64,000 nucleotides of DNA from Candidatus Saccharimonadales bacterium (lineage in GTDB: Bacteria > Patescibacteriota > Saccharimonadia > Saccharimonadales > JAYRRP01): NCBI GenBank assembly GCA_041906765.1, contig JAYRIP010000001.1, positions 13,061 through 77,060 on the forward strand, written 5' to 3'. Below the pieces are notes generated by a model that made no database searches, was not told the DNA's origin, and saw only the letters and a list, made by a program, of their open reading frames with translations. The position numbers and the translations under genes are program-made. Positions 586 through 60,411 of this stretch are shown here, piece by piece. How positions within the stretch are numbered: the stretch's first letter is position 1; the number at the start of each line of letters is the position of its first letter.

Positions 586-977
586 GGGGCTGAAATTATA
601 TGCTCGACGCCAGTTCTTTATCGGTTAGATCAGCAGGTCGCTTGTCAGCGTTATAGGCAACTACAAGTAGATGCAAAAACATCACTTCGCGATCGCTTAG
701 CTGCTTTGAATCCGTTCAAACAGTTGGCATTCGCACCAGCCGTAGCCTAAGTTGCTTCGGCCATGCGTTGTGCGACACCAGATAGTGCAAATGCGTGCCA
801 TATTTTCTGGTTGCGTAAGTCCTCTGTCCATAGGATTTATTAAGAAATCAGGACTTTGAAAGCCGACTTTTTGACCGTTTACCGGCCGGTTTTCGAGACA
901 TTCTAAACGGTCTATGCCTGTAGACGACTAACTAGATAAACTAGCGGACGCGGGGGCAGTACCCGCCAGCTCCACCA
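586..977 (+). ncRNA. ssrA: tmRNA (SsrA)
   Basis: The 5' end GGGGCTGAAATTATATGCTCGACG and the 3' end GGACGCGGGGGCAGTACCCGCCAGCTCCACCA match the tmRNA tRNA-like domain. The acceptor strands GGGGCTG and CAGCTCC pair, and there is a T-arm and an encoded CCA. A candidate tag frame at 673-747 ends ...QLAFAPAVA, followed by TAA at 748-750. Confidence 0.9.
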
Positions 978-1156
978 AAGAAAGTACCTCCCTTGAAAAG
1001 TGGGGTTTTTTCTTTGGTAAAGTTTGTTAGGTGGGGACTGCCCCGAGAGGGTGAGGATTGCCAGTGGCAATCTGCAAGATTTCAGATACAAACTGGTTTG
1101 TAATATGTAAATTTCTGAACAAGTTGCGAAGCAACGTGTACCCGCCAGCTCCACCA
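959..1156 (+). repeat. 19-nt direct repeat of the tmRNA 3' end (GTACCCGCCAGCTCCACCA at 959-977 and 1138-1156) bracketing a 160-nt hairpin-rich spacer
   Basis: The two copies are identical by direct reading. Identity starts inside the T-loop and ends at CCA. The spacer holds hairpins at 1055-1071 (gattgcc agt ggcaatc), about 1085-1102 (tacaaa ctgg tttgta) and 1123-1135 (gttgc gaa gcaac). Confidence 0.85.
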
Positions 1157-1197
1157 TAAGAGATTTTCGATCAATTCGAAGGTTTTTGTTAATTCAG

Positions 1198-4355: not shown

Positions 4356-4432
4356 GACGAACATAATTGATTTTGGATGTTTATTTTGCTCATGCTTGCA
4401 TAGAGACATTGAAGTTTTACAATGTACTTATT

Positions 4433-4768
4433 ATGCCTGAAGGTGAGCCCCCGATTGTACCTGAAGAAGTGTCAGAGGTAGATTCTAGCTCTCTTGACTG
4501 GCAAGAATCTGCCAACTGTATCAATAAAGATCCGGATATCTTTTTTCCAGAAAGAGGTGCAAGCACGAAAGAAGCTAAGGCAATCTGTAAGGAATGTGAT
4601 GTACGGGAAGAATGTCTTGAGTATGCTTTTAAAAACGGCGAAAGGCGTGGGATTTGGGGTGGAACGAGTGAACGTGAGCGTCGTCAGATAAGAAAGCAAC
4701 GTGCCATACTACGTACTGCAGCCCGGCGGGCAATAAGGGAAAGTGAGCTTAGTCCCCTAGAGTCATAG
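4433..4768 (+). CDS. WhiB-like (Wbl) Fe-S transcription factor
   Basis: The four-Cys pattern C-x22-C-x2-C-x5-C (CINKD...CKECDVREEC), the GIWGG turn and an Arg-rich C-terminal tail are Wbl hallmarks. I place the start at ATG 4433 (MPEGEPP), because the upstream part of the ORF overlaps a promoter-like AT-rich region. Confidence 0.8.
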   Translation: MPEGEPPIVPEEVSEVDSSSLDWQESANCINKDPDIFFPERGASTKEAKAICKECDVREECLEYAFKNGERRGIWGGTSERERRQIRKQRAILRTAARRAIRESELSPLES

Positions 4769-44720: not shown

Positions 44721-44807
44721 GCGCGAGTGGCGGAATTGGTAGACGCGCTACCTTGAGGTGGTAGTGGGAGCAATCCTGTGGAGGTTCAAGTCCTCTCTCG
44801 CGCACCA
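44721..44807 (+). tRNA. tRNA-Leu (anticodon GAG), CCA encoded
   Basis: Acceptor strands GCGCGAG/CTCGCGC pair. The anticodon loop is TTGAGGT. It has a long variable arm and the T-arm GGAGGTTCAAGTCCTCT. Confidence 0.9.
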
Positions 44808-51953: not shown

Positions 51954-52040
51954 GCCGCAGTGGTGAAATTGGTATACACGCTAGTTTCAGGGACTAGTGG
52001 GAGCAATCCCGTGGAGGTTCGAGTCCTCTCTGCGGCACCA
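51954..52040 (+). tRNA. tRNA-Leu (anticodon CAG), CCA encoded
   Basis: Acceptor strands GCCGCAG/CTGCGGC pair. The anticodon loop is TTCAGGG. It has a long variable arm and the T-arm GGAGGTTCGAGTCCTCT. Confidence 0.9.
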
Positions 52041-52224
52041 TATTGGGTTCAGTGCCTAGTTGGAGTGCGGGTTGGTAACTATAAGTGAGACTCGAACCGA
52101 TAGGCGTACATTGCTTGGGGCAATGTACGGAATCCTTGCTTGGCTGAGCGAGCATTTGCGCGCGGGCAACGCGCACAAATGTTGCCGAGCGAACATGAGG
52201 AGTCGAGTCCTCTCTGCGGCACCA
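52019..52224 (+). repeat. 22-nt direct repeat of the tRNA-Leu(CAG) 3' end (TCGAGTCCTCTCTGCGGCACCA at 52019-52040 and 52203-52224) bracketing a 162-nt structured spacer
   Basis: The copies are exact. The spacer holds hairpins gcgtacattgc/gcaatgtacg (52104-52129) and catttgcgcgc/cgcgcacaaatg (52153-52181). It also holds an inverted 10-nt copy of the T-arm (gactcgaacc, 52089-52098). Confidence 0.85.
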
Positions 52225-52301: not shown

Positions 52302-52378
52302 GGGTGGCTAGCTCAGTTGGCTAGAGCACCTCGTTTACACCGAGGGGGTCGGGGGTTCGAATCCCTCGCCACCCACCA
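52302..52378 (+). tRNA. tRNA-Val (anticodon TAC), CCA encoded
   Basis: Acceptor strands GGGTGGC/GCCACCC pair. The anticodon loop is TTTACAC and the T-arm is GGGGGTTCGAATCCCTC. Confidence 0.9.
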
Positions 52379-52564
52379 TACAGCTTTTGTTAAGAATTGT
52401 TTGTGGCGAAGGAAGCCAACTGCTTGGCTTTCGTGGGATGAAAACAGTCGGAGCCCTGTGTGAGTTTTGGCCTAAGGGCCAAAGGCGAACACGGTGAGAC
52501 GGGCTCGCGAGACTTTACCGTCAGGTAAAGTACTTGTGAGTCGAATCCCTCGCCACCCACCATA
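52357..52564 (+). repeat. 24-nt direct repeat of the tRNA-Val 3' end (TCGAATCCCTCGCCACCCACCATA at 52357-52380 and 52541-52564) bracketing a 162-nt structured spacer
   Basis: The copies are exact. The spacer has GTGAG (52460-52464) followed by a 7-bp hairpin tttggcc taag ggccaaa (52466-52483) and then gcgaac. A second hairpin ctttacc gtca ggtaaag lies at 52513-52530. Confidence 0.85.
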
Positions 52565-52566
52565 AG

Positions 52567-52592
52567 CACCCCTAAATGCAAGGGGTGTTTTT
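52567..52592 (+). terminator. Rho-independent terminator following the second copy of the tRNA-Val 3' end
   Basis: cacccct aaatgca aggggtg followed by TTTTT. Confidence 0.7.
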
Positions 52593-53074: not shown

Positions 53075-53149
53075 CAGGGTCCAAGTTGAATGTTTACCTC
53101 TTATCAGTTATGATAAATGTGCTTTTTGCCAGTTTAAATGGCGCTTTAG

Positions 53150-53225
53150 CTCAGTTGGTAGAGCAGAGGCCTGAAGAGCCTTGTGTCCCCAGTTCGAGTC
53201 TGGGAGGCGCCACCATAAAACTTTT
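53150..53225 (+). tRNA. tRNA-Phe (anticodon GAA), CCA encoded
   Basis: Acceptor strands GGCGCTT/AGGCGCC pair. The anticodon loop is CTGAAGA and the T-arm is CCCAGTTCGAGTCTGGG. Confidence 0.9.
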
Positions 53226-53393
53226 GTAACCTTTTTCCTGGTGAGAAAAGTTTCATTATGTCTCTACAGACGAAGAACTGGATCTTTTGCGTAGCAAAAG
53301 CAGTTTGACGCCAGCGAAGTCACGCACAGGAATATATTCCGAGCATGACGAAGTGCGCGAAGGCGTAGCCGAAGGTCTGGGAGGCGCCACCAT
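53208..53393 (+). repeat. 19-nt direct repeat of the tRNA-Phe 3' end (GTCTGGGAGGCGCCACCAT at 53208-53226 and 53375-53393) bracketing a 149-nt structured spacer
   Basis: The copies are exact. The spacer holds hairpins cttttgc gta gcaaaag (53294-53310), the palindrome ggaatatattcc, and tgcgc gaag gcgta near the 3' end. Confidence 0.85.
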
Positions 53394-53405: not shown

Positions 53406-53436
53406 AACAAAAAGAGGGAATCAAGCCCTCTTTTTG
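53406..53436 (+). terminator. Rho-independent terminator following the second copy of the tRNA-Phe 3' end
   Basis: aaaaagaggg aatcaa gccctcttttt. Confidence 0.7.
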
Positions 53437-55076: not shown

Positions 55077-55153
55077 GCGGGTGTAGCTCAGTTGTTTAGA
55101 GCGCTTCCTTGCCAAGGAAGAGGCCAGGGGTTAGAGTCCCCTCACCCGCACCA
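55077..55153 (+). tRNA. tRNA-Gly (anticodon GCC), CCA encoded
   Basis: Acceptor strands GCGGGTG/CACCCGC pair. The anticodon loop is TTGCCAA. The T-loop TTAGAGT is unusual. Confidence 0.9.
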
Positions 55154-55341
55154 AGTAAAGAGTCGGTCGAAAGACCGGCTTTTTACTTGGTCTGAGGCGG
55201 CTCTTACGCCTGGTCGAGAAGAGGCCAGGGTGAGAAGTGCCAGTGGCACTTCGCAAGGGAACCTTCCGATGAAAACTTGTTTTCAATGGTGAAGTTCCGG
55301 GCCCGCGGAAGGCGGGGAGAGTCCCCTCACCCGCACCAAGT
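55133..55341 (+). repeat. 24-nt direct repeat of the tRNA-Gly 3' end (AGAGTCCCCTCACCCGCACCAAGT at 55133-55156 and 55318-55341) bracketing a 164-nt structured spacer
   Basis: The copies are exact. The spacer starts with a terminator-like hairpin (55154-55190). It also contains a 13-nt copy of the tRNA variable/T-stem segment gaagaggccaggg (55218-55230), then GGGTGAG and hairpin aagtgcc agt ggcactt (55235-55251), followed by tgaaaa cttg ttttca and cccgc ggaag gcggg. Confidence 0.85.
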
Positions 55342-55713
55342 TGACACCAATGACTGTTCCCTATCAAGGGAGCTTTTATTTTTCTTGATTGAGCTGTCGG
55401 TTTCAACCTTAGCCAGTTCTGACTTCATTTTTGGTAAGTTGTCCTTGATTGGGATGACCCATGGATTAGGCTCTATGCTTACCGTTTTATTTGTAAGGAC
55501 TGGGTTACAGCCTATGGCTAACAGAATCTCTCTCCTCATACCGAAGTTACCCGCTTTAAAATTCTCACTAGCATTACATAGTCGTTCAAGAGTCATGCCG
55601 ATGATCTCGTACCAGTTTTTGACCCTTTCTGCGGTATCTTTCTGCTCTTTTTGGCGCAGGGCAAGCTCGGTCTCTATGACAATGCGAAGTGGCAAGAATT
55701 GAGCAATAGGCAC
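55327..55713 (-). pseudogene. Possible C-terminal remnant of a large serine recombinase
   Basis: 128-aa GTG-start ORF with a stop two codons upstream. GNFGMRREILLAIGCNPVLTNKTVSIEPNPW resembles, from memory, the tail motif (..K.EIL.ALGSN..L.DKKL.) of large serine recombinases. No catalytic N-domain is present. Confidence 0.35.
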
Positions 55714-55797
55714 TATGACTTACGCAAAATCTGGCACGCAGTCCTCTACCTAACGGGAAAGATGGCCATGGCGCAGAAAAAGGCTTCCAAACGATAA
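55684..55797 (+). mobile_element. Degraded N-terminal fragment of an IS5-type (DUF4096-like) transposase
   Basis: The frame reads ...KWQELSNRHYDLRKIWHAVLYLTGK.... D-L-R-x-I-x-x-A-V-L-Y-L-x-TG matches the conserved DLR..lnAIlYvlrTG motif. The frame breaks right after it and there is no start codon. Confidence 0.4.
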
Positions 55798-55845
55798 CTG
55801 CTCGTGAATGATTAATCACTAGATATCTAATTTGTAGTATACCTA

Positions 55846-55874
55846 TTGACAATGTAGTACTTGTCTGCTAACAT
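55846..55874 (+). promoter_or_regulatory. Sigma-70-like promoter TTGACA-N17-TAACAT for the GHKL operon, predicting a leaderless or near-leaderless first gene
   Basis: Consensus -35 at 55846-55851 and -10 at 55869-55874. The ATG at 55885 lies only about 4 nt beyond the expected transcription start. Confidence 0.5.
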
Positions 55875-55884
55875 ACGTACTACC

Positions 55885-56103
55885 ATGACAAATGAGAGTA
55901 AAAACGAAAAATTCAAGCGGTTAGCCAAGCAGCGCGGCGATCGTGTATTGAAGGACATCGAGTTACTCGGTAATCTGGGCAACCGGAATAATTATGATTA
56001 TTCCGAATCAGATGTCAGAAAGCTGTTTTCGACTCTAGAGGAGGAGTTACGAATAGCTAAGACGAGGTTTAAGCAAAATAAAAAGCGCGAAATAAGATTC
56101 TAG
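55885..56103 (+). CDS. Small basic helical protein (72 aa), first gene of the GHKL operon
   Basis: MTNESKNEKFKRLAKQRGDRVLKDIELLGNLGNRNNYDYSESDVRKLF.... The TTG at 55861 proposed by the ORF track lies inside the promoter. Confidence 0.5.
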   Translation: MTNESKNEKFKRLAKQRGDRVLKDIELLGNLGNRNNYDYSESDVRKLFSTLEEELRIAKTRFKQNKKREIRF

Positions 56104-56138
56104 GGTATGGTAATTACATAATTTAGGGGGACCAATAA

Positions 56139-58151
56139 ATGGCCACATTCACACAACCCATCAACCGAGCGGCAGACCTTAAAGCAATATTGGATGGTTA
56201 CGAACAAGCAATTAAAAAAGATAGTTGGTTGTCCGAAGCTTTTCAAAAGGATGGAATACAGAACGCATGGGGAGCACGTACCTCTTCGAGGGGCAATGGT
56301 TGGGAGGTTAAACTCCTCTATTACAGCGACCCCTCGACTTCTAGGACCTTCGCAATAATTGAAGACGCAGGAACCTACGGTTTAACAGGTAACGTGCCAG
56401 AGAACGTAGAGGAAGAAATACGCTTGCTTGAATCTGAAGATGAAAGGCAGCGTTTGGGACGGTTTCTGAGTTCGAACTGGAGCTTAAAAACGGAAAACTC
56501 TTTGGGCTCGCGAGGCCGCGGTAAGATGATTTTTGTTGGAGCTTCAACAACCAATGAAATGTATTTTGAAACAGTCAAGAGCGATGACAACTATTACGTA
56601 TTCGGCAGAACTTATTTGGATAAGGATAAGACCATGAAGGTCGAAGTTCAAAAAGGCAGGCAGGCACACGAAATGCGTGAGCGAGTATTTGGTCATAGAT
56701 TTCCTGCCGTACGCCATGTAGGTACGAGAATCATCGTACCGGAACCAGAACAAGAGCTAGCTGATGCGCTTAGAACGGGTAGCATTGCAGAAAGCATCCA
56801 GTTGACATGGTGGGAGATTATAAATAAGTACCAGGCAAAGATTTATGTCGGGGAGCTCAGTAACGCGAAGCTAGTAGAGGCTTCGCCCTGGCTTCCAACT
56901 GAGGTGTCTGGCATAAATAAACAAAAAAGCTATACGAATATAGCAATAGAGCCAGGCTCTATTTTAAAAATCAAGAGGATCGGCCTCGCATACCTTCAAG
57001 ACAAAGAGGTTCCGATTAATTACCAGGGTATAGCGATACAGCGTGGGGGCATGAACATCCAAGTGATGCCGACAACTAAGTTGTTGCGCGAAGTACCAGA
57101 GGGCAAAATTTTTGGCTCAGTTGAGTTCGACAGATCGCTCGACGATGCGATGTTAGAGCTTGAGCATGCCGAGCACTATGACTTTAAGTGGCACAAGGGT
57201 GTCGCTTATAAAGTTAACCGAGAGCTTAAAAAAATCGTAAATGATTTTGCCCGGGAATTTAAAATCCTAAATGATGAACGAGAGGCCTCCTCAAAAGACA
57301 GAAAAGAGGCTGCATCCGCTGTTCAACGAGAGTTGAATGATATTGCCAAATCATTGGGGCTAAAAGGTTTAGGATTTGGGACAAAGACCAAGGGATTGCC
57401 GCGTCCGGCTCCTGTTGAGCCAGAACAGATTACAATTTCGATACCTGAGTTTAAGACGCCTAATACCAATGGACAGGTAAGTGCGGGACAGTACCTTACG
57501 GGAACCTACGCACTTGCCAGTAGCGAGTATGCAGAGCAATTAAAGGTCAGCTCCCAAATTTGGATCTATAGAGAAGGGGGCTTTAACCTTCCTGGCTTAG
57601 TCGAATCGCGAGAAGGAGTTGTAGGTAGCGGAATTGCAGCATTAAGAGTAGGTTGGGACGACTTACACATAGACGATCGCTTTGAAAAGGGTCACTACTT
57701 TCTTAAGGCAAAATTGATTGCGCTTGAGGACCGAACGATGGATGACGGTAAGGAAATCGAAAAAGGTGACATTCTATACCGAGAAGTTTCAAGACCATTT
57801 TGGGTTGATGAAGAGCCGCCAGCAAAGGGTTTCTTTAAAGACATCGTAGCTCTCTCCAAAGGCCGAGAAAACTATGTCTGGTGGGAATACGAAGACGGCT
57901 ATGTGCTTTGCTATAACAAAGAACACCCACGCATTAAAGAGATAATCGATGATGACGAAGCATATAAGGATTTGCTTCGCAAGGAAGGTACTCTTATCCT
58001 TTGGGCCATCGTTTTAAACAATGTCATTGCTAACCCCGAAGAGATGGACAAGAAGATACTGAAATTAACGGATGGTGTAGAAGAGCAATCTTTGGAAAGC
58101 CAGGTGGGCTGGCTGCTCAGCCGTCGCAGTGAAGTGCTATGGGGTAAATGA
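56139..58151 (+). CDS. GHKL-superfamily (MORC/MutL/Hsp90-like) ATPase-domain protein, 670 aa
   Basis: N-box-like EAFQKDGIQNAWGA, G1-like IIEDAGTYGLTG and G2-like GSRGRGKMIF. A strong RBS AGGGGGA precedes the ATG. The C-terminal approx 400 aa have no recognisable domain. Confidence 0.65.
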   Translation: MATFTQPINRAADLKAILDGYEQAIKKDSWLSEAFQKDGIQNAWGARTSSRGNGWEVKLLYYSDPSTSRTFAIIEDAGTYGLTGNVPENVEEEIRLLESEDERQRLGRFLSSNWSLKTENSLGSRGRGKMIFVGASTTNEMYFETVKSDDNYYVFGRTYLDKDKTMKVEVQKGRQAHEMRERVFGHRFPAVRHVGTRIIVPEPEQELADALRTGSIAESIQLTWWEIINKYQAKIYVGELSNAKLVEASPWLPTEVSGINKQKSYTNIAIEPGSILKIKRIGLAYLQDKEVPINYQGIAIQRGGMNIQVMPTTKLLREVPEGKIFGSVEFDRSLDDAMLELEHAEHYDFKWHKGVAYKVNRELKKIVNDFAREFKILNDEREASSKDRKEAASAVQRELNDIAKSLGLKGLGFGTKTKGLPRPAPVEPEQITISIPEFKTPNTNGQVSAGQYLTGTYALASSEYAEQLKVSSQIWIYREGGFNLPGLVESREGVVGSGIAALRVGWDDLHIDDRFEKGHYFLKAKLIALEDRTMDDGKEIEKGDILYREVSRPFWVDEEPPAKGFFKDIVALSKGRENYVWWEYEDGYVLCYNKEHPRIKEIIDDDEAYKDLLRKEGTLILWAIVLNNVIANPEEMDKKILKLTDGVEEQSLESQVGWLLSRRSEVLWGK

Positions 58152-58795
58152 TGGCTATAGTCTTACGCCGAGGCGGTGAAAAACAGTATAAAAGCGGTAC
58201 CGGCAGGGTAACCAGTGAGGATAGTCTAAAAGCAGACCAACTGGATAATGAGCTTAGTATAAAAATCAAGGCATATGAACAGGATGCTCTGAAAAGAGGT
58301 CTTATACTCCCCAATGGCACAAAAAAAGACGCATTACGGATTTGGTATGATATCGGAAAGTTGCTGTATGACATAGCCGATAAATATGGTGTATTGGGCA
58401 CATCCGATGAGCTTTACTATTGGCAGTCAATTTACGACCACGTTTCGCCTTTAATTCAAAAACTCGGGCCTCCTCAAAGTACATCGAACACTAGGAATCA
58501 CTTTAGATTGTGCGCTTACATGGCTAGTAAGGGCGATTGGGACTTTGTTAGCAGTGTGGGTAACTGGTCCGTATGGCGAGACTTATTAGATAATAGTAGA
58601 ATCCAAGAAGATCCACGGGTATTTGATTGGGTAGTTAATGCAATACATACGTCAGGCCTTGGGCATAAGGAAGTCAGACCGTTCGTACACGAAGTCCGGC
58701 GAAGTATAAAAAACAAAGACACTACGGTATTAACCGACAAAGAGTTGGTAGCTAAGCTGCAACCATTACTGGGTTTGATTCCTTCGAAATCTTAA
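58148..58795 (+). CDS. Hypothetical 215-aa protein, translationally coupled (ATGA) to the GHKL ATPase
   Basis: There is a 4-nt start/stop overlap with the upstream gene. I could not identify any nuclease motif. Confidence 0.6.
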   Translation: MMAIVLRRGGEKQYKSGTGRVTSEDSLKADQLDNELSIKIKAYEQDALKRGLILPNGTKKDALRIWYDIGKLLYDIADKYGVLGTSDELYYWQSIYDHVSPLIQKLGPPQSTSNTRNHFRLCAYMASKGDWDFVSSVGNWSVWRDLLDNSRIQEDPRVFDWVVNAIHTSGLGHKEVRPFVHEVRRSIKNKDTTVLTDKELVAKLQPLLGLIPSKS

Positions 58796-59798
58796 CCAAA
58801 TGGGTATTCATTTCAAGGGCCAGAAGCGTTTCTTTTACGCTTTCTGCCACAGCTTGAGCAACAGGCACAGATACGGCGTTGCCTAATTGCTTATAGGCTT
58901 GTGTAACAGGGATATCAAATGAGTAGTCATCGGGGAATCCTTGAAGTCGTGCGCTTTCTCTGGTTGTAATCTTCCTAACCCCTCGAGAATTTAATGGTGA
59001 GCCGGTTCGGTTTACGGCATCCCTTGGCTTAGGAACATCTTGGATTAGATTTCGCTCCCTTCCCATATTGCCAACTACAAGCGCGGTAGATATGCCCTCT
59101 GGATCTAGAATGCGATATCCGAAGCCATGGCCTTTGGCAGCATGCCTTTGCTTGTGTTTTTCGAGTCCGTCCATGTATGTTTGCGAAAGATAGTAGTAAT
59201 CGTGCACCTCTTCCTTTTCAAGAATGTCCTTAACGCGAAGTTTAAGTTCAACAGGCTCTGGAAACTTAAATTCTGCAGAATGGTCCTTGAAGCCCACTAT
59301 GTAAATTCGCTTCCTATCTTGAGGAAGCCCATAATCCTTTGTGTTTAGAACTTGGGTATATACCTTATACTCTAGCTCGTTTTCAAGCTTATCCATGATG
59401 ATCTTAAACGTATTGCCCCCATCATGTTTAACGAGGTTTTTTACATTCTCAAGTACAAATGCTTTTGGACGCTTAGCCTTTAGTATTTCGAGCACATTAA
59501 AAAAGAGCGTTCCCCTTGCGTCATAGAAACCGTGTAGCTTACCGATTTTAGAAAATGGCTGGCAGGGGAAGCCCCCCGTAATTATGTCGGCGTAGGGTAT
59601 GTCGTTTGGCTCGACTTTAGTAATGTCTTGTAAATCTAATGCGCCTTCGCCAAAATAGCCGTCGAAGGAGACCTTGCACCACTTATCAAAATCATTTGAA
59701 TATATAGTTCTAAAACCAGCCCTCTCAAATCCGAGCCTAAAACCGCCGATTCCAGCAAACAGATCTACTAAGGTATATTTGTTATCGGATGTTGTCAT
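58752..59798 (-). CDS. dcm: DNA (cytosine-5)-methyltransferase
   Basis: Motif I DLFAGIGGF, motif IV GGFPCQPFS, motif VI ENVKNL, and motif X QLGNAVSVPV. Confidence 0.9.
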   Translation of the reverse strand: MTTSDNKYTLVDLFAGIGGFRLGFERAGFRTIYSNDFDKWCKVSFDGYFGEGALDLQDITKVEPNDIPYADIITGGFPCQPFSKIGKLHGFYDARGTLFFNVLEILKAKRPKAFVLENVKNLVKHDGGNTFKIIMDKLENELEYKVYTQVLNTKDYGLPQDRKRIYIVGFKDHSAEFKFPEPVELKLRVKDILEKEEVHDYYYLSQTYMDGLEKHKQRHAAKGHGFGYRILDPEGISTALVVGNMGRERNLIQDVPKPRDAVNRTGSPLNSRGVRKITTRESARLQGFPDDYSFDIPVTQAYKQLGNAVSVPVAQAVAESVKETLLALEMNTHLVKISKESNPVMVAA

Positions 59799-59842
59799 AA
59801 TGTTTAATTATAGCCGGAAACGTAATAATTGGCATCAAGGTT

Positions 59843-60259
59843 ATGGATAAATTTGATTCGAAAAAAAGAAGCGAGATAATGTCGCGCATAAAATCCAAGG
59901 ACTCTGTAGCGGAGAAAATCGTTTTCAGAGAACTTAGGCGTAAAAATATTTATTTTCAAAAGCATTATAAAAATGCTCCCGGAAAGCCAGACATTGCACT
60001 GCCCAGAAAAAGGCGTGCAGTATTTATAGATGGCGACTTTTGGCATGGTAGAGATTTTATTCAACTTTCAGAACAGCGTAAATTAAGTGTCTTCTGGATT
60101 AAAAAGTTAACTGGCAATATAGACAGAGACAAACGTCAGCTTGAAGAGCTGGCTCAACTCAACTGGAGGGTGCTTAGAGTTTGGGAAAGTGACATAAAGA
60201 GAATACGGACTAGATCAGCAGAAATTGAAAAGATTGTCTCGTTTCTAGTCGCAGACTAA
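59843..60259 (+). CDS. vsr: Very-short-patch repair endonuclease Vsr
   Basis: KKRSEIMSRIKSKDSVAEK...GKPDIALPRKRRAVFIDGDFWHG is typical of Vsr. It is divergent from dcm. Confidence 0.9.
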   Translation: MDKFDSKKRSEIMSRIKSKDSVAEKIVFRELRRKNIYFQKHYKNAPGKPDIALPRKRRAVFIDGDFWHGRDFIQLSEQRKLSVFWIKKLTGNIDRDKRQLEELAQLNWRVLRVWESDIKRIRTRSAEIEKIVSFLVAD

Positions 60260-60411
60260 ACGGTCCGTAGCTCATCAGCAAAGTTACACTTTCACGAATA
60301 GTGCTGCACCAGGGATTTTGCGAATCATTACATATGTAAAACACCGAAAAAACCGGTATTTTGCTTTAACTCAAAAGAGACTTAAACTAACTCTTTTGTT
60401 ATCCTAGGCTT

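Follow-up and report, generated by a model that had tools for sequence, protein, structure and literature searches.

Archaeal tRNA genes can be interrupted by non-canonical introns with bulge-helix-bulge (BHB) junctions or split into separate pieces (reviewed in PMC4033280). The group I introns of Patescibacteria tRNAs are longer than 200 nt, match RF00028, occupy position 35/36 of functional genes and self-splice in vitro. Integration of tyrosine-integrase elements into tRNA and tmRNA genes includes a T-loop sublocation class, reportedly described by Williams in 2002. Saccharibacteria, epibionts under constant attack, have tiny genomes with roughly one gene per tRNA. Here we analyse a stretch of 64,000 nt (the window) from contig JAYRIP010000001.1 of a Candidatus Saccharimonadales bacterium, in which the spacers behind the tmRNA and tRNA-Gly genes contain a common block of about 88 nt that folds into three hairpins (the core). 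The explanation we favour, with confidence somewhat better than even, is that each of the two spacers represents a small mobile element with a structured RNA as its conserved part.

An earlier sequence-only reading of the window had proposed that the two spacers are homologous, that they share a block composed of AGGGTGAG, a 7-bp hairpin with an AGT loop and YGCAAG, and that paired substitutions in three hairpins reflect selection on folded RNA or single-stranded DNA (ssDNA). The block is present at 1048-1078 and 55227-55257, and a pattern derived from it matched twice in the window and not once in 100 shuffled sequences. Homology was borne out by a covariance model (R1) of 109 distinct copies, which recovered both cores (Table 1), gave a marginal 16 bits to the spacer behind tRNA-Leu(CAG) and detected nothing further in the window. 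All three hairpins read as had been stated, with some changes of detail. Hairpin 2 is only the tip of a longer bulged stem of about 16 bp (55257-55298 at tRNA-Gly), and hairpin 3 is, in the majority of copies, a 7-bp stem closed by a GAA loop. The distance from the block to the second copy of the gene end, given as 90 nt at both loci, holds at tmRNA but is 91 nt at tRNA-Gly when the start of the copy is set by exact identity.

The core consists of GGUGAG, hairpin 1 with its AGU loop, GCAAG, the long bulged hairpin 2, and hairpin 3 with its GAA loop; it is one compact three-helix domain with invariant unpaired nucleotides and no terminal repeats. The three helices were the RNAalifold consensus of an alignment of the 109 cores, which had been collected with a pattern that fixed only unpaired motifs and left the covarying positions free. 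Double compensatory changes occur at 24 of the 31 base pairs, the reverse of the fall to neutral expectation with more copies that the sequence-only reading had named as its refutation. Compensatory cells numbered 585, compared with 153 +/- 10 in shuffles (0 of 500 as high), and 95.7% of cells were paired, compared with 76.4% in shuffles (again 0 of 500) and 31-47% when partners were slid by 1-3 columns. The core fold is under selection. Since G.U far exceeds A.C among wobble cells (204 versus 31, with one position G.U in 88 of 109 copies), the fold belongs to the GGTGAG strand, which is tRNA-sense in almost all loci. This asymmetry fits RNA or same-strand ssDNA, and conserved G.U pairs do not fit the duplex protein-binding site that had been offered as an alternative. 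Significant covariation on one strand, the generic mark of a structured non-coding RNA, is thus a property of the core. Folding energies of the single sequences were modestly better than those of shuffles (z = -1.5 and -2.3), too weak to decide the strand; the statistical weight comes from the family comparison. A pairing of GGGTGAG with the acceptor strand (CTCACCC in tRNA-Gly) was considered and rejected: the tmRNA end holds no such complement, and the motif is invariant across tRNA types.

The family is large. Pattern matches were found in 115 stretches of a collection with one genome per species (genome_contigs), nearly all titled Saccharibacteria, Saccharimonadales or Patescibacteria, and in 99 stretches of metagenomes; an nhmmer profile recovered 159 cores in genome-derived loci and 135 in metagenome loci, about 290 copies in total. 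Cores stand behind or before tRNAs of at least 15 specificities as well as tmRNA, of which a second linked copy is present in another locus (L022). Viral contigs contained none, so a phage origin is unsupported. Comparison with Rfam 15, at gathering thresholds and at E <= 10, returned only tRNA and tmRNA at both window loci, with the best sub-threshold matches at chance level, and nothing at the cores of 19 further loci and 10 metagenome loci; no family matched the fold. Full-text literature searches found no description of the element, the nearest topic being the group I introns at position 35/36 of Patescibacteria tRNAs. The family is apparently undescribed, and specific to Saccharibacteria in the collections searched. 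One core copy shares its contig with a lysM-TM7 RNA (RF03005; L028 5587-5735), so that TM7-specific motifs are represented in Rfam and the core is not. Six other loci carry tRNA-linked units that lack the core pattern of tmRNA and tRNA-Gly (type A) and follow the same plan: a terminator, an antisense T-loop such as GGATTCGAAC, then a hairpin often containing ..GCCAGTGGC.., and in some units tiny inserts of 8-20 nt in the T-loop copy. Such units suggest that the superfamily is wider, or that cassettes of this kind form a continuum.

Five tRNA genes of the window are called by ARAGORN, and one tmRNA gene is recognised by Rfam. ARAGORN misses the tmRNA gene that RF00023 calls, and tmRNA genes of this lineage may often escape annotation. 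Five of the six genes are followed by an exact duplicate of their own 3' end, from T-loop to CCA, as direct repeats of 18-24 nt; the second copies begin 159-164 nt past the gene end and each added unit measures 177-185 bp. The only gene without a unit is tRNA-Leu(GAG) (44721-44807), which in another genome (L109) does carry a type-A unit behind it. The Leu(CAG), Val and Phe loci hold related units with cores other than the tmRNA/Gly type. The Leu spacer, to which the sequence-only reading had granted only the general architecture, resembles a unit behind tRNA-Leu elsewhere (L096). The kinship claimed for the Val spacer can be followed by eye in a TGAG-hairpin-GCGAA module, but the covariance model finds no match there; a pattern for this "type B" core had no match in metagenomes. 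The hairpin directly behind CCA, as in the tmRNA unit, recurs in most 3'-type units elsewhere (defined below).

All 109 cores are preceded by GG, and the last base of the core abuts T55 or C56 of the T-loop. In the genome-derived loci, 58 copies lie in the T-loop after G53, 11 in the D-arm, 10 in the anticodon arm or loop and 8 in the variable region, a distribution replicated in the metagenome set. Antisense insertion is rare (3 genome and 2 metagenome cases); in two tRNA-Phe loci the core stands antisense to the tRNA, again after GG (..GAACTGG followed by the core). Units come in two orders. The 3'-type, to which the window tmRNA and tRNA-Gly loci belong, opens with the intact tRNA. Behind it come a hairpin, frequently a terminator, then an antisense segment and a brief sense stretch copied from the variable loop and the 5' strand of the T-stem; the core and a copy of the T-loop-to-CCA region complete the order. 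The 5'-type begins with a tRNA copy from its first base to the insertion point and continues with the core, a short piece of the downstream flank, the antisense segment and a spacer, ending in the intact tRNA. Nearly all interrupted copies are fragments that extend from the insertion point to the mature 3' or 5' end and adjoin an intact gene. The duplicated tRNA part stops within 0-4 nt of the mature 5' end or 0-8 nt of the mature 3' end, and duplicated target parts overall span 18-60 nt. The second 3'-end copy is explained in this way, because the core sits in a partial gene copy beside the intact gene, and we infer that all arrangements are circular permutations of "core plus target flanks". 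Beyond what the sequence-only reading had described, the block is an inserted element within a partial pseudo-copy of the gene, a member of a large Saccharibacteria-specific family, and the "spacer" includes an antisense copy of the target.

A tRNA-Pro(GGG) with an odd anticodon region (..ACGGCTGGGGGCCGT..), labelled "tRNA-???" by ARAGORN, belongs to many Saccharibacteria and was encountered in L122 and about 12 other loci. In many species the gene is preceded by a pseudo-copy with a core in the anticodon-region loop, and in two loci (L047 and L122) the pseudo-copy is duplicated in tandem.

Duplicated gene ends invite comparison with integrase scars, that is, with attL/attR remnants of tyrosine-integrase islands that entered the T-loop and brought a replacement 3' end, similar to cis-mobilizable elements (CIMEs), in which the block would be an arm-type protein-binding region. 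The identity block from T-loop to CCA is indeed the classical signature of tRNA-integrating elements, and tRNA-Gly is an island hot spot both in the window and in a related locus (L001). Even so, we hold this explanation to be very improbable and largely refuted. Unit length is fixed and leaves no coding capacity, and what separates the two repeats contains neither integrase gene nor island, nor any att-type anatomy. The same core stands behind more than 15 tRNA types, always with the end of that tRNA and not with one cognate attB; D-arm, anticodon and 5'-type arrangements exist; and covariation keeps pairing rather than sequence, with the G.U asymmetry. Moreover, the sequence just 5' of the repeat is hairpin 3 and not a T-stem-like core site, and the sole nearby recombinase, found in L001, belongs to the serine class.

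Insertion can involve nothing but the core, as nested copies and one full-length interrupted tRNA-Lys gene demonstrate. In four loci a second complete core is nested after the CGGG that precedes hairpin 3 of a first core, where it displaces the hairpin's 5' strand; neither a duplication nor an antisense segment accompanies it. Targets extend beyond tRNA. In L135 (1200-1420) a core follows AGAGGG in the loop of a long non-tRNA hairpin (AAATGAGCTCTCAG-AGGGGGTGGGCACCG-CTGAGAGCTCATTT), a target that gave no Rfam match and recurs in six further loci, with cores in arrays that repeat about every 130 bp. Insertion of the core alone, without a seam, in loops behind the short motif GG recalls ssDNA transposition, as would be expected of the relic of a non-autonomous IS200/IS605 or palindrome-associated transposable element (PATE)-like element, or a similar one targeting hairpin loops, whose hairpins would be signals for movement in trans by a transposase with its gene elsewhere in the genome. 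The strand-specific hairpins that tolerate G.T pairs, the strong orientation bias, the small size and the many copies agree with such an origin. We nevertheless judge it improbable: elements of that class make neither target duplications of 20-60 nt nor antisense target copies, the window encodes no transposase, and in place of conserved subterminal palindromes at both ends there is the single three-helix domain. The paired end structures or terminal inverted repeats, with short or no target duplication, that mark PATEs and MITEs (miniature inverted-repeat transposable elements) were not found.

The interrupted tRNA-Lys gene deserves separate consideration. At L068 (1631-1790; JBBSLJ010000002.1) an 88-nt core occupies the T-loop of a full-length tRNA-Lys(UUU) gene that ARAGORN detects only after removal of the core, and the 8-kb locus contains no antisense segment, duplicate or other tRNA. 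This arrangement would suit a true intron, spliced from tRNA transcripts by itself or by a protein, the fragments elsewhere being decayed former host genes; so would the location of insertion sites in cloverleaf loops and the way in which the antisense segment, resembling an internal guide sequence, pairs with the two "exon" flanks. When cores were removed throughout and ARAGORN was asked for a tRNA, however, the outcome was L068 and two artefacts, so that 1 of about 290 cores interrupts a full-length gene. Removal of that core leaves a 6-nt T-loop, hand inspection of its junctions shows no BHB (3-4-3) motif, Rfam yields no match to group I or II introns or any ribozyme family, and 88 nt is far below the size of known self-splicing introns. 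Splicing is accordingly a highly doubtful account of the family.

Most units carry a tRNA-specific antisense segment that spans the uninterrupted insertion site, its best-kept part complementing the T-loop, the 5' strand of the T-stem and the variable loop. The sequence-only reading had taken "ggggactgcccc" in the tmRNA spacer for a hairpin; it is in fact an antisense copy of the T-arm of the gene itself, as is the corresponding tRNA-Gly region (Table 1). Local alignment of the tmRNA segment to the antisense of the 3' part of the gene gave z = 3.6, equalled by 1 of 200 shuffles. Read as a self-hairpin, the segment fails: its two arms make a poor match for one another and a better one for the T-loop and the 5' strand of the T-stem. 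Of 48 units, 21 had their own tRNA as the best antisense match, and in 32 it ranked within the top 10%. Among changes in the segment, 93 keep wobble pairing on the sense strand and 43 break pairing, and in predicted folds the segment is paired with both sense flanks of the core. As possible sources of the antisense copy we considered schemes of snap-back cDNA, template switching (direct-inverted-direct) and circle integration. In two loci ARAGORN called the antisense segment and sense flanks a tRNA-like cloverleaf once the core had been removed, and unit remnants could therefore be mis-annotated as tRNAs.

Related loci bear on mobility. They were found through homologues of a PafA-like gene that lies between tRNA-Phe and tRNA-Gly, the nearest being 50-57% identical; a protein-based scan of genome_contigs with this gene gave no confirmed match. 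The contigs of relatives retain the order Leu-Val-Phe-PafA-Gly. L001 and L002 carry a unit at Val but none at Leu, Phe or Gly; L007 likewise lacks units at Leu, Phe and Gly and has a truncated unit remnant at Val. At the Phe site, comparison with L001 reveals a precise presence or absence of 177 bp between conserved flanks. The Val site of L009 holds a complete unit with a type-A core, as in the window tmRNA and Gly units, and since the window Val unit is type B, one core type can evidently stand behind different tRNAs, each time with the 3' end of that tRNA. Every core subfamily occurs with a wide range of tRNA types, which speaks for frequent retargeting. Tandem arrays include identical and diverged units. 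To judge from these sequence comparisons, the presence/absence differences, nested copies, tandem arrays and decayed copies indicate mobility.

The Val site also bears the imprint of selection. In its structured part, the Val unit of the window is about 90% identical to that of L001; the flanks are unalignable and the neighbouring PafA protein is only 57% identical. Differences within the unit are compensatory (CTTTACC/GGTAAAG versus TTTTTCC/GGAAAAA), and the antisense segment tracks the acceptor strand, with GTGGCGA and TCGCCAC in the window and GTGGTGA and TCACAAC in L001. Conservation at this level between distant genomes indicates selection. Could the selected function be one that serves the host? 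The unit would then act in cis or trans on the adjacent tRNA, either as a trailer controlling 3' processing or termination, or as a "spare part plus splint", in which an antisense splint bridging the T-loop would keep a T-loop-to-CCA fragment in reserve for repair of the cleaved tRNA by an RNA ligase. The Val conservation speaks for this, as do the presence of units at five of the six window genes, a duplicate that always extends exactly to the mature end of the tRNA and matches the resident tRNA without differences even when the acceptor stem varies from genome to genome, and an antisense segment that bridges the break point. No promoter-like sites were found inside the units. The Leu, Val and Phe units have their predicted terminator behind the second copy; lying between tRNA and terminator, they are probably transcribed as trailers of the tRNA, which would also agree with a host role. 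At tmRNA and Gly a hairpin follows each copy, and the one after the second tmRNA copy is presumably the terminator of that unit. Yet the same tRNA sites are empty in many relatives; decayed, nested, tandem and antisense-oriented copies, together with the non-tRNA hairpin target, look selfish; 5'-type units would need to supply 5' fragments; and no linked ligase or nuclease was found. We regard a host-serving RNA as unlikely on balance.

Under the favoured mobile-element explanation, the element would spread as an excisable cassette made of the core and a permuted copy of the target flanks. Entry by a single crossover within the tRNA-derived homology would leave one intact gene and one interrupted fragment, of 3'-type or 5'-type, and insertions that break the only copy of a gene would be lost. 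The permuted arrangements are also those that selection would leave if disruption of a single-copy tRNA gene is lethal. The RNA fold, and the antisense segment pairing with both flanks of the core, may serve the propagation of the element itself, for example excision or insertion at the loops of a folded tRNA.

Several points weigh against this explanation. Direct evidence of transcription, excision, circles or any enzyme is nil, and the approximately 55 proteins of the window include no reverse transcriptase, integrase or transposase, with no Pfam match to a recombinase anywhere in it. The crossover model leaves unexplained what generates the matching antisense segment and flank copies whenever a further tRNA type becomes the target. 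The T-loop remaining at L068 after core removal is not the canonical one of 7 nt. Because G.T pairs also occur in the ssDNA hairpins of some transposases, the fold may be that of RNA or of same-strand ssDNA, and the long-term conservation of the Val site suits a host function as well as a selfish one. Finally, copies were gathered by sequence pattern, so diversity is under-sampled and the counts are biased.

A bolder proposal can be put forward only tentatively. The core may be a new RNA-based mobile element that inserts at GG in exposed loops of folded tRNA, tmRNA or further hairpin RNAs, either as RNA or on single strands that have folded, and is fixed as a retro-copied or recombined cassette that regenerates its target, with the antisense segment as guide or splint; or, alternatively, the unit may be a tRNA repair module that keeps a spare end on a splint. 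If true, either version would be a mechanism without described bacterial precedent.

Table 1. Features of the five units in the 64-kb window, with their intact genes.
Feature	Position	Strand	Evidence or remark
tmRNA gene, intact	586-977	+	Rfam RF00023, 67 bits; last 19 nt repeated at 1138-1156; spacer 160 nt
A/T-flanked hairpin right after tmRNA CCA, ending ...TTTTTTCTT, then TGGT (complement of ACCA)	978-1018	+	Sequence; minimum free energy (MFE) fold
tmRNA antisense segment GGTGGGGACTGCCCC	1030-1044	+	13/15 identical to complement of tmRNA T-arm
tmRNA type-A core, divergent, short hairpin 2	1048-1137	+	Covariance model R1, 49.7 bits, E = 4e-10; MFE fold equals family consensus
Parts of tmRNA core: GGGUGAG; hairpin 1 (AGU loop); UGCAAG; hairpin 2; hairpin 3 (GAA loop)	hairpin 1, 1056-1072; hairpin 2, 1087-1102; hairpin 3, 1123-1135		
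Exact tmRNA 3'-end duplicate (3' part of T-loop to CCA)	1138-1156	+	
Hairpin and T-run after second tmRNA copy	1164-1187	+	Sequence; simple terminator scan gave no call
tRNA-Leu(CAG) gene and unit with a different core family	gene 51954-52040; unit 52041-52224	+	Spacer 162 nt
Parts of Leu(CAG) unit	antisense T-loop 52084-52098; hairpins 52106-52128, 52152-52182; 3'-end duplicate 52203-52224		
tRNA-Val gene and unit with type B core	gene 52302-52378; unit 52379-52564	+	Spacer 162 nt; terminator 52566-52592
Parts of Val unit	antisense 52403-52420; GTGTGAG, hairpin 52458-52483, GGCGAA; hairpin 52513-52530; duplicate 52541-52564		
tRNA-Phe gene and unit with another core family	gene 53140-53215; unit 53216-53393	+	Spacer 159 nt; terminator 53409-53435
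Parts of Phe unit	weak antisense segment 53267-53281; duplicate 53375-53393		
tRNA-Gly(GCC) gene, intact	55077-55153	+	ARAGORN and Rfam; second copy 55318-55341; spacer 164 nt
Terminator-like hairpin immediately after tRNA-Gly CCA	55154-55188	+	Terminator scan match 55165-55180 with T-run; MFE fold
tRNA-Gly antisense segment TGAGGCGGCTCTTACGCCTGG	55193-55213	+	17/21 identical to complement of tRNA-Gly positions ~48-68 (T-arm), z = 4.0
Sense copy of the 13 nt preceding the tRNA-Gly T-loop (GAAGAGGCCAGGG)	55218-55230	+	Exact 13/13 match; core comes after its terminal GG
tRNA-Gly type-A core, typical member	55227-55317	+	R1, 99.4 bits, E = 5e-22; family covariation
Parts of tRNA-Gly core	hairpin 1, 55235-55251; long hairpin 2, 55257-55298 (tip 55270-55285); hairpin 3, 55302-55316		
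Exact tRNA-Gly 3'-end duplicate (T-loop position 3 to CCA, plus AGT)	55318-55341	+	
Terminator-like hairpin after second tRNA-Gly copy	55356-55383	+	Terminator scan

The PafA-like gene used to find relatives encodes a PafA/Dop-like Pup-ligase (PF03136; 53451-54872), and a WhiB-family regulator is encoded at 4367-4768; both are typical of Actinobacteria, and the two genes may have been acquired from the actinobacteria on which these epibionts live. The tRNA-Gly unit is immediately followed by a probable island (55340-60260). Three of its open reading frames (128, 670 and 215 aa) have no Pfam match; it also encodes a C-5 cytosine methylase (58752-59798, minus strand) together with a Vsr mismatch endonuclease (59843-60259), an arrangement resembling a restriction-modification module. 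In the relative L001, a large serine recombinase (L001 3213-4709) comes after this tRNA-Gly.

A large share of Saccharibacteria tRNA genes bear an appendage of 180 bp in which a conserved fold of RNA, a duplicate of the gene end and an antisense target copy are combined. If it moves through RNA, no smaller structured mobile RNA would be known in bacteria, and it would be a new way to invade essential genes without killing the host; if it serves the host, it would point to an unrecognised layer of tRNA maturation, protection or repair. In practical terms, the fragments confound tRNA annotation and those island-finding tools that rely on tRNA-end repeats, and the covariance model could annotate core copies in metagenome-assembled genomes of Saccharibacteria.

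Among known systems, the tyrosine-integrase elements (prophages, islands and CIMEs) share with these units the direct repeat from T-loop to CCA, sometimes extended by a few nt, the preservation of the intact gene, the use of both tmRNA and tRNA sites, and tandem arrays. The units differ in being about 180 bp long with no integrase, in the association of one core family with many tRNA types, in their 5'-type, D-arm and anticodon sites, in the antisense target copy and in the conservation of RNA pairing. The group I introns of Patescibacteria tRNAs belong to the same phylum and are likewise structured RNA insertions in tRNA genes that annotation tools miss; in contrast to them, the core has 88 nt, matches nothing in Rfam and lies mostly in the T-loop of partial pseudo-copies. 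Archaeal BHB introns and split tRNAs offer parallels in their D-, anticodon- and T-loop sites, in intron families that extend across tRNAs and in complementary sequences that hold gene parts together, whereas here the host is bacterial, no BHB is recognisable at the junctions (by hand inspection only) and the adjacent intact gene makes splicing unnecessary.

Repetitive extragenic palindromes (REP) and bacterial interspersed mosaic elements (BIMEs), the PATEs of IS200/IS605, MITEs and group IIC introns are, like the units, small, multi-copy, hairpin-rich, strand-specific and inserted at stem-loops. Unlike REP/BIME, PATEs and MITEs, the core has neither terminal inverted repeats nor paired end hairpins, and it is accompanied by long target-derived duplications and an antisense copy. 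GOLLD, ROOL and the TM7-specific Rfam motifs such as lysM-TM7 are, as the core is, orphan structured RNAs brought to light by comparative analysis and often adjacent to tRNAs or specific to TM7. The core matches none of them in sequence or structure; it is much smaller, and it is embedded in duplicated fragments of tRNA.

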